This document shows, piece by piece, positions 14,955 to 26,547 of a stretch of 64,000 nucleotides of DNA. Position numbers and translations under genes: made by a program. A model generated the notes under the pieces. That model worked only from the letters and a program-made list of their open reading frames with translations, was not told the DNA's origin and did no database searches. Every line of letters starts with the position of its first letter. Within the stretch, counting starts at the first letter, position 1. The DNA is from Schmidtea polychroa (taxonomy: Eukaryota): NCBI GenBank assembly GCA_044892525.1, contig CM097885.1, positions 16,742,001 through 16,806,000 on the forward strand, written 5' to 3'.

Positions 14955-15858
14955 TGTTAAGATCAAAAAGATGGGGGTTGATCTCAACACAGTTGACTCC
15001 AATTTAATTTAAATATAAATATAAATATAAATATAGTTATTTATAAATAACTTTTTCGTGTGGTTGCGTGTAATTTATAAAAAAACAAAACTCAACAACT
15101 TCCTTTTTCAAATACTTTTATTAGAATTTTATAAACAAATAATTTACAGAACAATTCAGATATAGGATTCTTTGATCCCTACTGTTGTCAACAGTCTGCA
15201 AGAAATTGTTGGCTCCTATGTAGCACAACAATCGCACAAAGTTAAAAGAATGATTAAGCAAGTGGGAATGATTTTGGGGTGCCCAGGGATTACTAAAGTA
15301 TGTGAGAACTACTTTGTAATCGCTATATTTAAATATTTAAATATCCAAGGATACAATTTATCCTCACTCTCCCTTATATTTAATTAAACTAATTAAATTT
15401 TACTTTTAAATATTCTCGTTTCTGTTCATAAATAATTCTTCTCTCGATTTTCAATTCTGGCTCTTCCTTTTGTGCTAGAAATGTTCTGGTTTCTTCTGCT
15501 CTGTCAATTTTATAACAACTAATCTCCAACAATGTTGCTTTCTATTTATATGTTTATTGAGCACAGCTGTATTTTGATCTTCACTTTTCTTTCTGTTTAC
15601 GTGCTGGTAAATATTTGAAATTACTTATTTAATCCCTATGGATTTTTGAAGCTCATTGTAATTGTTTTCTTTTATGACCACAGCTGGTATATAATCTTAT
15701 TAATTCTCTCACAATACCACTTAAATCCAGGAACAGCTGGTTCTATATAGCGCTTTAAAATCAATAATGATTAATGATTAAGCGTAAAAATTATTTCCTG
15801 TTTTTTTCAACCAAAGGTGATTCTAAAATAATTTAAGGCCAGGGGCCTATCCCTAACA
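14955..15858 (-). repeat. 3' LTR (904 bp)
   Basis: TGTTA...TAACA; by eye about 6 substitutions and 1 indel versus the other LTR. Confidence 0.97.
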
Positions 15859-15873
15859 AGTCTTACCCCCTAA
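15859..15873 (-). other. Polypurine tract
   Basis: Minus strand AGGGGGTAAGACT abuts the 3' LTR. Confidence 0.75.
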
Positions 15874-16096
15874 AAGATTTTCGTCCCGAAAACAAGATAT
15901 AAAATTATTTTACAGGAACTGCAGACAACAATATTACATAAAAATTACCATAAATCATAAAACAAAATATAAACACATATTCCCAAAATAATAAATGACA
16001 GAATCACAAAGTAATGTCCAAGAAATGTCACATAAAACACATATAGATAAGTTCATATTTACACTCAATTGAACGGCTTCTGGCAATTCCCTTCGG

Positions 16097-18143
16097 TCAG
16101 ACATCCAGATCGTCAGGATCTGGTTCGGGAACTTTGTATAGATGTACCTCCGTGGTACTGTAACTATTTGCGATTGCATATTGGCGAATCATTTTCGCTT
16201 TCCGTTTCTTCAATACCTCATGCTCGAAACTCACGGCCAGGGCTTTATCATCCAGAGCGCATGTTAGTATGACTGTAGATATCACATAAGGTATCCCATC
16301 TACGTCATACTCATCATATTGTTGATTGTTATTTATCGCCATTTTCGTGATAGGTTGGCCATTATATTCTTTGGCTCTAGGCTTCCAATTCCTGTCAGGA
16401 CGTTTATACCACATAGGATCAAATCCATCTACGTCTACTGATACTGGCTTCTTTATGACATTTTCTTTTGTTAGTTTTAACATTTTCTTTCGTACTTCGG
16501 GTTCTGATTTGATTTTAATTTTCTCTTGCAATTCCTTGATTGGAGGTTGGAATTCAATTTTCATTAAGTCATCATCGGGTTCCGTGAATAATTTCCTGGG
16601 CTCTGCTTTGTTTACTTCATCCTTGCTGGATGGTATTTCTATCTTCTCCCTGGTTGTTTGGCAACCATTTTCAATTTCAATTTCGATTTATCGCGTTTGC
16701 CAGGTATCATTTTTTTAAATATCTTTTTGACTGTGCCTACCTCTGGGGTTTCCTTTGCACTTTTAACTTCTGACTTTTTCTGTGATTTCTTTGCGACACT
16801 AGTAGATGGTTTGGGTGGACTTGTTAATTCAGCTTCATTTACGCATGTTTCATACTCTTCTTCTCCTATCGACACTGTTGGAGGTGGTGGTAAATCTGCT
16901 GGTGACCTACCCATTTTCTTTGCCTGGGGCTGTTCTGATGTAGAAGGTTGTTCGGGTAATCTTCGTTTCTGCAAAATTTCTAAGTCAACCCCTTCCGCCT
17001 GGGTTGCTGACATGTAATCCTCCTGAGGCATACTGATATGGTTTACCCATTCATTTCGGATTTGTAGGTAAACCGCTCGGATCGCAAGTGCCTCGTTTGT
17101 TACAACTAAATTCCTTGGTTCTCCGGGAACCGTACGCAAAAACGTCTTTGTTAGGAATCCCAATTTATAATGACCATGAATCTTGGGGACTCCTCTGGAT
17201 TCTGACAACTTATTTGCTGATAAGTCTCTGATTCCTAACAATCGTTGCACGGGTAGATTGGCTACCGAAACTAAATCTTTTATTAAAATTCCAACTATAA
17301 TTTTCTTGTCACAAATTTTCCTAATAAGGTGGTGACAATCGTCTTCATCCAAATTCCCTCTGATTTCTGGTTCCTTCAGTTTATATTGGTGCGTCTGGTA
17401 GTGTTTAACTGGGTCCTTGGGAGTCACTACCGCGCTCAATAAATTGTTTCCTCTCATATCCACTATCGCAATTTGGATTAGTGTTTCTTTCAACTCCATC
17501 CTGGATTTTGTAAATCCTGCTGATACAAAAACTGTGGCCTCATCCTCCTCGATTTTTGTTAAGTATTTTCTTACGAACGACTTGCACTGTTGTATGTCGG
17601 CTCATTTCGACTCACAATAGGATGTTGTTTCCTAAACTCCAATATTTCCACCGCTATTATTGAATTTATTGCTGTTGCTTGAACTTGAATGTTCTTTTCT
17701 CGTCCATCTGAATGGTATATTTCCAACGTACTATATTTATCCAATTCCACGGGTAGGTCCATACCTGCCATGAACACCGTGATTGGCCTATTTATAGCGT
17801 GGATCCAAATGTTCTCTCTCCTTGGACATGATCCATATTCTCTGCATAAATCTCCTAACTTTATTCTCCCTTGGTTGCTTACAACCGTTATCATCATTTG
17901 TCTGTGAGGTCCACCTGGGAATTTATAATCGTTTGGGATATATACTCTCCTGGGATAATACCAATAATTCGAAGTGAAATGATTCATCTTCGTTTCTACC
18001 GTGGTTCCTATGAACCGGTATACGTATTCTTCCTTGAAGGTACTGTATACCTCCATATCTGTTGGACATTGGGAATTGTATTTTGCCATTTGAAGTCGTC
18101 TGTTTGCTTTGATTGGGGCTTTTGTCATTCTGTTCTGATCCAT
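16097..18143 (-). CDS. 3' accessory gene, probably one ~680-aa ORF broken by two frameshifts (17571-18143, 16639-17499, 16097-16564); central DEDDh exonuclease-like (REXO4/ISG20) domain
   Basis: IAIVDMRGNNLLSAVVTPKDPVKHYQT..LIRKICDKKIIVG..IRDLS..KLGFLTKTFL resembles the REX4 family; the open frames overlap at the junctions; splice acceptor 2 nt before ATG 18143. Confidence 0.7.
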
Positions 18144-18344
18144 TGCTGAAAATAAAATTAATTAATAGCTTTTATCACTTTCGTGATAGACCCTCCCAGG
18201 GTACACAAGGTCGACATACGCTGATGTCTGATTTTACCTTTGCTCAGTTGAGCCCACACTTTTAATACATTACTATAAATAAGGTTTATTAAATAGATAA
18301 CTATATATTTACATTGCCTAGTTTGTTGGTGAGACTTTTTCCCC

Positions 18345-24240: not shown

Positions 24241-25506
24241 CTATATAATTATTTTATTTCGCCTTTTTCTGGCTGACGTCATATAAACAGCTTCATTTTC
24301 ATCATACCCATCGTTTTCCTTTGTTGTTAGCCTTGCTAACCTGTTTTTCTCTTCTTGAATTTCTAATTCAAGCTGCTGCAAATACGTTAATTTGTGGTCT
24401 GAATTCACTGCAAACGTTGTCTGCTTCGATCGATTATTACCATTACTACTACCATTGTTATTAGATAACTGATTTTGTGGACAAGAACGCATAATATGAC
24501 CAAATTTTCCACACTTATGACATTTAATTTTACCCCCCGAATTTACTTCATCCCTTTTAATATTATTATTAAAATTATTATTTCTACTCTGAAAGTTATT
24601 ATTATTATTATTACCACGAAAATTCCTATCGGGGCTTCAATTTCTACTATTGCTATTATTTGAATTATTCCCCCCAAAACTAGCTTTACAAACTGACGCT
24701 ACATGTCCCTTGCGCTTGCATTTCTCACAATTCAGGTTCGAAATTCTACAGTTTGATGCCACATGATTATTTCTCCCACACTTGGTACACAATTTGTCCC
24801 CTGGAGAATTATTCCTACTTTTACAATCTTTTGACATGTGTCCCTTTTTATGACAATTAAAACATTCAATGTCTGACTTATTGCTACTAATTGCAAAATT
24901 ATTTGACTTCTCAATGCTACTTTCAATTAAACACGCTTTGCGCGTTAATTCCTCTAAATTATCTCCTATGTGTAAACTGAGTGCATTTCTCATTGCTGAC
25001 GATAACCCTGACCAAAACTGATCTTTTACTAATGCTCTAGTTGCATCATTCCAGGCTGCCCTATTGCCAAATGCTCTCTCTGCCAACATCATTATTTGAT
25101 ATGAAAATTCCCCAACATGCTCACCCGAATTTTGTCGCCTGTTATAAAACTGTTGTCTCAGCACTCTAGTTGCATCCCCCGGTAATATTCTGTTTTGTAA
25201 CGCTAATCGTAATATATTCCATTCAACTGGATGCTCGGCTATTATAACATCGTTATATATTTCCCGCGCCATCCCTTTTAAATATAAAGGTAATCTCAAA
25301 ATCATTACCGGTTCCGGAAATCCTAATGCTCTGGCTAACTGAAAATATTCGGACATAAATTCTGGAAACTCCCCTGGGTTTCCACTAAATGGTTTAATCG
25401 GAATTGTTGGGTATCTCATAAAATCTACCGCTGGTGGTTGAGCTACTGGCACATTATTTTGTAAATTATTCTCGTTTAGATTTTGAAAATTATTTATTTC
25501 TGCCAT
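24241..25506 (-). CDS. gag: Gag with four CCHC zinc knuckles; one in-frame TGA at 24637-24639
   Basis: PFSG..EF, RRQNSGEHVGEF capsid motifs; CFNCHKKGHMSKDC, CTKCGRNNHVASNC, CEKCKRKGHVASVC and, after the stop in the same frame, CHKCGKFGHIMRSC. Confidence 0.93.
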
Positions 25507-25623
25507 TATTTGCTGGTTTCTATTACCTGGTCTAAAATTTATTACTCTCCTATTTCTTAACTCAATGATTCAAAAAGATATTTGTCGTTTATAAATAAAA
25601 TTCTTATTCCCCCCGTAAATTAT

Positions 25624-25641
25624 ATCACGTCGGGCTCACCA
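25624..25641 (-). other. Primer binding site, tRNA-Trp type
   Basis: TGGTGAGCCCGACGTGAT, 3 nt inside the 5' LTR; one mismatch to the avian retrovirus tRNA-Trp PBS TGGTGACCCCGACGTGAT. Confidence 0.85.
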
Positions 25642-25644
25642 AAA

Positions 25645-26547
25645 TGTTAAGATCAAAAAGATGGGGGTTGATCTCAACACAGTTGACTCCAATTTAATTT
25701 AAATATAAATATAAATATAAATATAGTTATTTATAAATAACTTTTTCGTGTGGTTGCGTGTAATTTATAAAAAACAAAACTCAACAACTTCCTTTTTCAA
25801 ATACTTTTATTAGAATTTTATAAACAAATAATTTACAGAACAATTCAGATATAGGATTCTTTGATCCCTACTGTTGTCAACAGTCTGCAAGAAATTGTTG
25901 GCTCCTATGTAGCACTACAATCGCACAAAGTTAAAAGAATGATTAAGCAAGTGGGAATGATTTTGGGGCGCCCAGGGATTACTAAAGTATGTGAGAACTA
26001 CTTTGTAATCGCTATATTTAAATATTTAAATATTCAAGGATACAATTTATCCTCACTCTCCCTTATATTTAATTAAACTAATTAAATTTTACTTTTAAAT
26101 ATTCTCGTTTCTGTTCATAAATAATTCTTCTCTCGATTTTCAATCCTGGCTCTTCCTTTTGTGCTAGAAATGTTCTGGTTTCTTCTGCTCTGTCAATTTT
26201 ATAACAACTAATCTCCAACAATGTTGCTTTCTATTTATATGTTTATTGAGCACAGCTGTATTTTGATCTTCACTTTTCTTTCTGTTTACGTGCTGGTAAA
26301 TATTTGAAATTACTTATTTAATCCCTATGGATTTTTGAAGCTCATTGTAATTGTTTTCTTTTATGACCACAGCTGGTATATAATCTTATTAATTCTCTCA
26401 CAATACCACTTAAATCCAGGAACAGCTAGTTCTGTATAGCGCTTTAAAATCAATAATGATTAATGATTAAGCGTAAAAATTATTTCCTGTTTTTTTCAAC
26501 CAAAGGTGATTCTAAAATAATTTAAGGCCAGGGGCCTATCCCTAACA
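25645..26547 (-). repeat. 5' LTR (903 bp)
   Basis: Direct repeat of 14955-15858. Confidence 0.97.

Follow-up and report, generated by a model that had tools for sequence, protein, structure and literature searches.

A defective GAG-ENV-POL Gypsy endogenous retrovirus of Schmidtea polychroa with a chuvirus-like glycoprotein in frame between Gag and protease

Insect errantiviruses, among them Drosophila gypsy, combine a Ty3/Gypsy backbone and an envelope (Env) fusogen with the lifestyle of an endogenous retrovirus; their Env is mostly of the F type (class I-like) and is encoded in a separate open reading frame (ORF) 3′ of pol, expressed from spliced RNA. The gene order GAG-ENV-POL, with an Env of the gB type, has been reported for Gypsy elements of Nematoda, Bryozoa and Platyhelminthes (Chary & Hayashi, eLife 2026, PMC13524379; bioRxiv 2023), where the flatworm elements are classed as Ty3/gypsy and the nematode case is credited to Sacco et al. 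2022. The element described here lies in a 64,000 nt stretch of the planarian Schmidtea polychroa (assembly GCA_044892525.1, contig CM097885.1, positions 16,742,001 to 16,806,000 of the forward strand), referred to below as the window. In contrast to the separate 3′ Env ORF of insect errantiviruses, its glycoprotein (G) is internal and in frame with Pol. The locus is almost certainly a defective copy, with an internal deletion, of a Ty3/Gypsy endogenous retrovirus that is young, present in many copies and of the GAG-ENV-POL ‘errantivirus’ kind.

The initial annotation of the window did not recognize this architecture from described families of long terminal repeat (LTR) elements. That claim fails, as the element is a further member of a published kind whose gene order is already in print for flatworms and nematodes. 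Supplementary file 1 of PMC13524379 holds nine Platyhelminthes elements, six from Schmidtea mediterranea (Smed_errantivirus_1–6), of 14.5–18 kb; the copy numbers given for the six are 45, 215, 3, 8, 1 and 1, and the paper mentions Env ectodomains flanked by ‘two transmembrane domains’. Gypsy pol, a gB-type class III Env between gag and pol, and multiple copies in a planarian genome are common to the Smed_errantivirus elements and the present one. The ectodomain segments of all six (supplementary file 2) can be aligned with G by eye, Smed_errantivirus_4 being closest with about two-thirds identity over ~250 aligned residues. None of the six sequences is identical to the element, which therefore represents either an additional family or another species' orthologue. 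Whereas GAG, ENV and POL are treated as three ORFs in PMC13524379, intact copies of the present element have one, and an in-frame Env-Pol fusion is not discussed in the main text of that paper (figures apart). Its relevant passages, methods section and supplementary files 1 and 2 (figures apart) likewise make no mention of a C-terminal membrane module, an X region, a second ORF (ORF2) or microsatellite targets. The likeliest additions to the published picture are the second membrane module after the integrase, the X region, ORF2, double proteases in relatives and insertion into (AAT)n.

Other captured glycoproteins resemble G in part. The title of Sacco et al. (J Gen Virol 2022, doi 10.1099/jgv.0.001739), on nematode endogenous retroviruses, speaks of RNA-virus glycoprotein capture by a metavirus; the hosts belong to the Nematoda, whereas the present host is a flatworm. 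Atlas virus of Ancylostoma ceylanicum (Merchant et al., Sci Adv 2022, PMC9094657) is an intact LTR element with one Gag-Pol-Env polyprotein of 2828 residues, free of stops and introns. It is alike in its single polyprotein and in an Env related to that of RNA viruses, but it is a BEL/Pao element with a phlebovirus-like GN-GC class II Env at the C terminus, after Pol, so that Pol is not downstream of a membrane span. In mosquitoes, BEL/Pao elements with a chuvirus-like glycoprotein are known (Anakin; Dezordi et al., Front Genet 2020, PMC7642597). There too an LTR retroelement has captured a glycoprotein of this superfamily (chuvirus-like, with a gB-like fold), but on a BEL/Pao backbone, and its gene is described as gained alongside pol, not between gag and protease. 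In P0063, one of the relatives found, a BEL/Pao-type DUF5641 lies directly upstream of G, which fits an Anakin-like arrangement. The abstract of the nematode study is said to describe a continuous gag-env-pro-pol ORF and a glycoprotein resembling those of Nyamiviridae and Chuviridae; were this right, the in-frame fusion would already be in print for nematodes. Troyka elements were set aside as kin, as they carry no env.

All parts of the order proposed in the initial annotation, namely 5′ LTR, primer binding site (PBS), gag, an 1855-aa ORF, a reverse transcriptase (RT) fragment, an accessory gene, polypurine tract and 3′ LTR, are present on the minus strand (Table 1). The LTRs, estimated there at ~99 % identity, differ in pairwise alignment by 6 substitutions and 1 indel (7 positions) over 903/904 nt. 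Every feature claimed for the long ORF was also located: a hydrophobic segment (GTGGFTSWMMMLLVMMGIL, aa 738–756) followed by LTAYDC, a Cys-rich ectodomain with 14 Cys (aa 757–1298), a transmembrane segment, a tail and, in the same frame, a DSG protease (PR). The layout is far beyond chance, with a Pfam PF24664 score of 262 bits against a cut-off of 27 and the same layout in 25 of 25 scored copies. Assignment to the Ty3/Gypsy type is supported by the predicted LTRs, PBS and polypurine tract and by the domain order PR, RT, RNase H (RH), integrase (IN). In the related copies L034 and L037 the Pfam order is RVP, RVT_1, RT_RNaseH, RT_RNaseH_2, Integrase_H2C2, rve, and no BEL/Pao-type Pfam family was matched in scans of their ORFs; the window copy retains PR and the first part of RT.

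Several lines of comparison bear on the identity of G. Pfam PF24664 (Monjiviricetes_fusion, viral fusion glycoprotein) matches aa ~760–1380 with 262.4 bits (E 8.4e-78), and scores 276–320 bits in other copies and relatives. A phmmer search of 1.84 billion representative proteins (E≤0.001) gave 1297 matches to G, headed by a group of long proteins and followed by a bulk of ~650–680 aa at 20–28 % identity. An AlphaFold model of aa 740–1420, built from a 66-sequence alignment, has a mean predicted local distance difference test (pLDDT) score of 83.7, with beta-rich domains and a 48-residue central helix; in the modelled portion of the tail pLDDT is <50. Against predicted viral structures (BFVD), Foldseek ranks chuvirus-like G first (E 1e-39 to 1e-38, TM-score 0.44–0.59), with rhabdo-like G and herpesvirus gB below. 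Against the PDB, 114 chains were matched at E≤0.001 and all top ranks listed are herpesvirus gB (E about 1e-14). Likewise, 36 of 37 weak matches in an alignment-profile search of the PDB are gB (best E 0.005). Profile matches and the model thus support the inserted domain as a chuvirus-like class III fusogen, as the initial annotation had proposed, and the structural comparison it had suggested came out positive for both chuvirus-like G and solved gB. ‘HSV/gB-type ENV’, the label used in print, and ‘chuvirus-like class III fusogen’ are thus two names for the same thing.

The damage to the window copy becomes evident by comparison with other copies in the genome. When the genome was searched with the internal DNA and 20 of 1063 candidates were scored, 20 non-self matches resulted; 18 of them stop at query position 7217, equal to window 18428, and none extends beyond it. 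Downstream of 18428, the DNA up to the 3′ LTR corresponds, from query position 268, to the 3′ end of those same full-length copies. The window copy is therefore without ~3.3 kb. Contigs of four public runs cover the region and diverge from the window copy at 18428. Compared with intact copies, frame breaks lie near 24251 and near 18724, in addition to the premature stop that ends the gag ORF; the indel near 18724 is found in most public-run contigs. This indel places the RT fragment outside the frame of the long ORF, the internal deletion leaves RT as a fragment, and the premature stop and frame breaks account for the separation of gag from the long ORF and for the end of that ORF at 18665. 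In intact copies the stretch corresponding to 24241–24492 is in frame with gag and carries a zf-CCHC match at aa 327–344; alignment with two intact copies locates the differences in the window.

Intact copies of two subfamilies (L031–L033 and L034–L036) have a gag-bearing ORF (L033 and L036, respectively) in frame with a 3084-aa ORF (L031 and L034), as worked out from the coordinates, so that, counted from the first ATG, each has one ORF, of 3492 and 3495 aa. Their plan is a ~3,490-aa ORF with Gag (three CCHC), X (~740 aa), a signal-like segment, G, a transmembrane segment, a tail (~220 aa), PR, RT, RH, IN and a second membrane module, with a conserved ORF2 of ~740–767 aa downstream. Pfam domains in the L034 ORF fall at 1017–1403 (G), 1572–1668 (PR), 1899–2056 (RT), 2119–2248 (RH) and 2356–2543 (IN), after which ~540 residues follow. 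Among the genomic matches to the 1855-aa protein, 25 were scored; 19 of these are stop-free over the matched 1838 aa and 11 have open frames of 3513–3516 aa. Copies of the family are dispersed over all four large contigs. The recent activity claimed in the initial annotation is borne out by these long open frames, and from its sequences the family looks recently active.

The in-frame plan extends well beyond the window. The X-G-PR stretch (aa 1–1838) is present in 25/25 scored matches. A second family in the same genome, only 41–42 % identical in X, has open frames that reach 3369 aa, and its member L037 shows the one-ORF order zinc knuckle (zf-CCHC), G, PR, RT, RH, IN. A metagenomic relative, P0003 (3181 aa, 43 % identical in G), has the same domain order. 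Among 14 further relatives scanned with Pfam, 8 have G and then protease in one protein, 4 of these with RT-RH-IN as well, and one has a zinc knuckle upstream. The proposal that G shares a frame with protease and Pol therefore stands for many copies, two divergent families and outside relatives. Five relatives (P0004, P0005, P0006, P0007 and P0015) have tandem double aspartic-protease domains between G and RT, whereas the present family has one. Another relative, P0009 (2627 aa, G-PR-RT-RH-IN), is on record as a Flavobacteriaceae hypothetical protein from a metagenome-assembled genome; its contig is most likely eukaryotic and misbinned.

Selection on the parts of the ORF was estimated as dN/dS (Nei-Gojobori) from a single pair of genomic copies of two subfamilies. 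Values are 0.039 for the G ectodomain, 0.039 for PR, 0.028 for RT/RH and 0.019 for IN, with 0.085 for gag, 0.155 for X, 0.128 for the transmembrane segment and tail, and 0.126 for the C-terminal ~540 residues. The fusogen is constrained as strongly as the enzymes. A retroelement can thus carry a fusogen in the middle of its Gag-Pol frame, under the same constraint as its enzymes, which raises the questions of what sets the ratio of Gag to Pol, whether Pol is packaged via Env and how a polyprotein threaded through the membrane would be cleaved. These questions of assembly are testable, given the tractability of planarians, their stem-cell system and the large number of intact copies.

The topology of the long ORF was judged to be type I by hydropathy alone. 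A hydrophobic stretch lies ≤35 residues upstream of a conserved [YF]DC in 16/16 family members and relatives, and on visual reading it is usually followed, a few positions ahead of the motif, by small residues of the sort seen at signal-peptidase sites. Exactly one hydrophobic region is found 525–556 residues after [YF]DC, and none between that region and the protease, in 14/14. With one membrane pass after the ectodomain, PR-RT-RH-IN would lie on the cytosolic side, as a working Pol requires. The genomic RNA may thus be translated as one polyprotein, in which the internal signal sequence would route the G ectodomain into the lumen of the endoplasmic reticulum (ER), signal peptidase cutting about 3 residues before [YF]DC. 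The single transmembrane segment would halt transfer, and PR-RT-RH-IN would remain cytosolic as a giant tail of G until the protease of the element freed Pol, with Gag-X held at the membrane by the signal segment. Gag, fusogen and Pol would be produced in equal amounts at one membrane, in the style of a flavivirus polyprotein, and enveloped particles might then pass between cells.

Flavivirus and pestivirus polyproteins pass through the ER membrane by way of signal and stop-transfer segments inside the chain and are cut by signal peptidase on the lumenal side and by the viral protease on the cytosolic side; their capsid is left anchored by the signal sequence of the next protein. The route proposed here would be alike as an analogy of mechanism, with no homology, as those are RNA viruses with class II fusogens. 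A defective GAG-ENV-POL Gypsy copy combined with a one-polyprotein, membrane-threaded route is, overall, the probable explanation of the locus. Taken separately, the processing route itself (co-translational insertion, a lumenal signal-peptidase cut and cytosolic release by the protease) is put at an even balance between right and wrong. The window copy is unable to run such a route by itself. Several points weigh against this account. No N-glycosylation sequon occurs in aa 757–1345, which is odd for a secreted viral glycoprotein (a rough estimate from composition gives ~3 as expected in the ectodomain). Equal amounts of Gag and Pol are unusual for a retrovirus, though single-ORF Gypsy elements exist. 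The estimate of constraint comes from one pair of genomic copies, and translation as a polyprotein and cleavage by signal peptidase and protease are predictions from sequence. Additionally, G may come from a spliced or otherwise distinct message, or some messages may skip X-G.

The last of these points can be stated as an explanation of its own, in which G is made from a spliced or, in flatworms, trans-spliced subgenomic RNA that starts near the signal sequence and yields G alone or G-Pol, another RNA may skip X-G to give Gag-Pol, and the continuous frame is mere compact gene packing. Retroviruses and Drosophila gypsy do express env from spliced RNA. A Met at or just before the signal core offers a possible start in the window copy, L031, L034, L037, P0003, P0005, P0008 and P0015, and the predicted proteins of P0004, P0006 and P0007 start ~130–150 aa before G, so that gag is separate there. 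However, a Met at the signal start is not a constant feature: P0004 and P0013 lack one upstream of the core, and in several others Met occurs only within the core. Nor does a stop separate G from PR in any of 10 PR-bearing sequences (8 relatives, P0003 and L037), and a message starting at G would therefore still yield a G-Pol fusion. No clean-splice-like joint was seen in the contigs of the four public runs, which are of uncertain kind and cannot show transcription. Expression of G by splicing is accordingly regarded as rather unlikely, and compact packing as the sole reason for the continuous frame equally so.

The two remaining explanations concern the history of the locus. That the glycoprotein segment is a one-off chimera, a nested insertion or an assembly artefact might be suspected from the rearranged state of the window copy, with its 3.3-kb deletion and frame breaks, and from recombination that does occur in the family (LTRs 80 % but internal region 98 % identical to one copy). 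The initial annotation had named this as the outcome that would undo its reading, and it did not hold. All 25 scored matches carry X-G-PR in frame, the order is common to two families at 41–42 % identity and to outside metagenomic relatives, the dN/dS of G is 0.039, contigs of four public runs cover the region, and different chromosomes and flanks argue against the copies being one duplicated locus. A chimera or misassembly was rejected on these grounds, and its probability is negligible. Alternatively, G or the whole element could be retained because it serves the host, for example in cell fusion or antiviral interference, the copies being amplified relics. Captured viral fusogens have been co-opted elsewhere, e.g. 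the syncytins, and a 62-member tandem array of a 3′ fragment of the element (described below) represents amplification without transposition. Yet, within elements bounded by LTRs, G is constrained along with PR, RT and IN; the elements keep a PBS, LTRs that are nearly identical and many intact ORFs of ~3,500 aa, and the copies are dispersed on all four large contigs. Such a pattern marks an element under selection to replicate itself. Retention for the host is therefore very improbable, though less remote than an artefact.

A more far-reaching version of the polyprotein account is doubtful. In it, the polyprotein would cross the ER membrane four times, Pol would be the tail of the fusogen at the budding site, the C-terminal module would be a receptor-binding or accessory envelope protein and integration would be directed to (AAT)n. 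If true, this would be a retrovirus design with two glycoproteins and an Env-tethered Pol, none of which was found in the cited parts of PMC13524379.

The C-terminal membrane module is best seen in L034 (8348–9322, aa 2760–3084), where a second type I-like module of ~325 residues stands at the C-terminal end of Pol. It has a signal-like segment at aa 2761, ~260 residues with 4 NxS/T sequons, a strong transmembrane segment at aa 3043 and a short tail; just its last ~30 codons are retained in the window, 3′ of the junction at 18428. A hydrophobic pair after the integrase is found in 6/6 sequences long enough to show it (L034, L037/L040, P0003, P0006, P0009 and P0017). The module is the most divergent part of the element, with 62–64 % identity between subfamilies against 89 % overall, and has 15 genomic matches of ≥98 % identity. 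BLASTP against P0003 gave no match for it, and a word-based search among shorter proteins no relatives. An AlphaFold model from a 3-sequence alignment is poor (mean pLDDT 51.9), and the look-alikes in the Atlas are weak, being FN3-bearing single-pass membrane proteins (0.92, recognition below the mark); on these look-alikes the module is possibly FN3-like. Of 124 genomic matches to the module, 62 form a tandem array at C3:106492018–107230950 with a period of about 2.87–2.88 kb. In every unit an open frame of 188 aa encodes the C-terminal 178 residues of the module, at 87–89 % identity, and the array looks like a satellite-like amplification of an element fragment.

The X region has no match in Pfam, the PDB or the Atlas. 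Its aa 174–430 align with the relatives P0003 (E 2e-15) and P0005 (E 8e-11). Within it, at window 22853–23785 (aa 150–460), lies a pair of similar stretches, both finishing with a motif like L.G..L.D.E.L.D.GC; the pair is conserved in P0003, P0005 and the second family. ORF2 has 767 aa in L035 (4295–6598), and the DNA of its window remnants matches the 3′ part of full-length copies. It is 33 % identical to ORF2 of the second family over 669 residues (E 3e-118). No Pfam or PDB match, no N-glycosylation sequon and no transmembrane segment beyond the first ~45 residues of the frame were found for it.

Table 1. Features of the element in the window, in the order of the minus strand. Positions in aa refer to the 1855-aa ORF.
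Feature	Window position	Strand	Description
LTR retroelement	14955–26547	minus	LTRs, PBS, gag, 1855-aa ORF, RT fragment, accessory-ORF remnants
(ATT)n microsatellite (insertion site)	26548–26720; other side 14925–14954	none	repeat and flank inspection
5′ LTR	25645–26547	minus	903 nt, TG..CA ends; direct repeat and genome search
PBS	25624–25641	minus	begins 3 nt past the 5′ LTR, ends in TGG; alignment
gag	24637–25506	minus	289 aa, ended by a premature stop; zf-CCHC and zf-CCHC_5 Pfam matches
Displaced Gag continuation	24241–24492	minus	third zinc knuckle, out of frame in the window copy
Long ORF	18665–24232	minus	1855 aa, stop-free; X, signal-like segment, G, transmembrane segment, tail, PR, start of RT
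X region	22022–24232	minus	aa 1–737, between Gag zinc knuckles and signal-like segment; conserved
Internal signal-peptide-like segment	21965–22021	minus	aa 738–756; hydropathy, putative cleavage
Ectodomain of putative class III fusion glycoprotein	20339–21964	minus	aa 757–1298; Pfam PF24664, AlphaFold model, Foldseek
Transmembrane region of G	20231–20338	minus	aa 1299–1334, single; Kyte-Doolittle peak 2.29
Predicted cytoplasmic tail or linker to PR	19574–20230	minus	aa 1335–1553; no hydrophobic segment; putative location
Retropepsin domain	19283–19573	minus	aa 1554–1650; Pfam RVP, E 3.5e-8; IDSGSD at aa 1572 (D[ST]G[AS])
N-terminal RT fragment	18345–18686	minus	113-aa ORF in a frame other than that of the long ORF; Pfam RVT_1, E 8e-7, profile 14–106 of 205
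Deletion junction	18428–18433	none	~3.3 kb removed: most of RT, RH, IN and the C-terminal membrane module
Accessory ORF2 remnants	16097–18143	minus	pieces of 190, 286 and 155 aa; no Pfam match
Putative polypurine-tract region	15859–15880	minus	purine-rich run directly upstream of and abutting the 3′ LTR
3′ LTR	14955–15858	minus	904 nt, TG..CA ends; direct repeat with 25645–26547; same coordinates in genome search

The 15-nt core of the PBS occurs 1807 times in the genome, against 0 for a reversed control, a count far above that of the scored copies of the family; the primer is probably shared with many related elements. The internal flank that forms the polypurine-tract region recurs beside LTR copies at 6 other loci (L003, L006, L014, L016, L017 and, with one change, L002).

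A second deleted copy (locus C2:166896582–166907736; L038, L039) spans the same junction at C2:166897484–166900310. Its LTR is 99 % identical to that of the window copy, and it lies at another microsatellite locus and bears additional damage of its own. The same deletion at two loci suggests that a deleted derivative was mobilized in trans. The two copies lie in (AAT)n/(ATT)n tracts in opposite orientation. More widely, 18 of 41 outer LTR flanks (copies L001–L030, among which L008 and L009 may be one locus assembled twice) abut (AAT)n/(ATT)n tracts of at least 30 nt, compared with about 2 % of window positions, which suggests integration into, or retention in, AAT microsatellites.

A copy at C2:98166585–98181511 has an internal region 98 % identical to that of the window copy and LTRs merely 80 % identical, and LTR matches fall into several partial classes (1–618, 524–903); together these point to recombination between subfamilies.

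Elsewhere in the window, a cluster of large ORFs at 41979–53659 includes a 1322-aa ORF, an integrase core with chromodomain (51386–52312) and a poxvirus-A32-like ATPase (53021–53659), and may be a Maverick/Polinton-type element. Remnants of a hAT transposase are found at 37378–39750.

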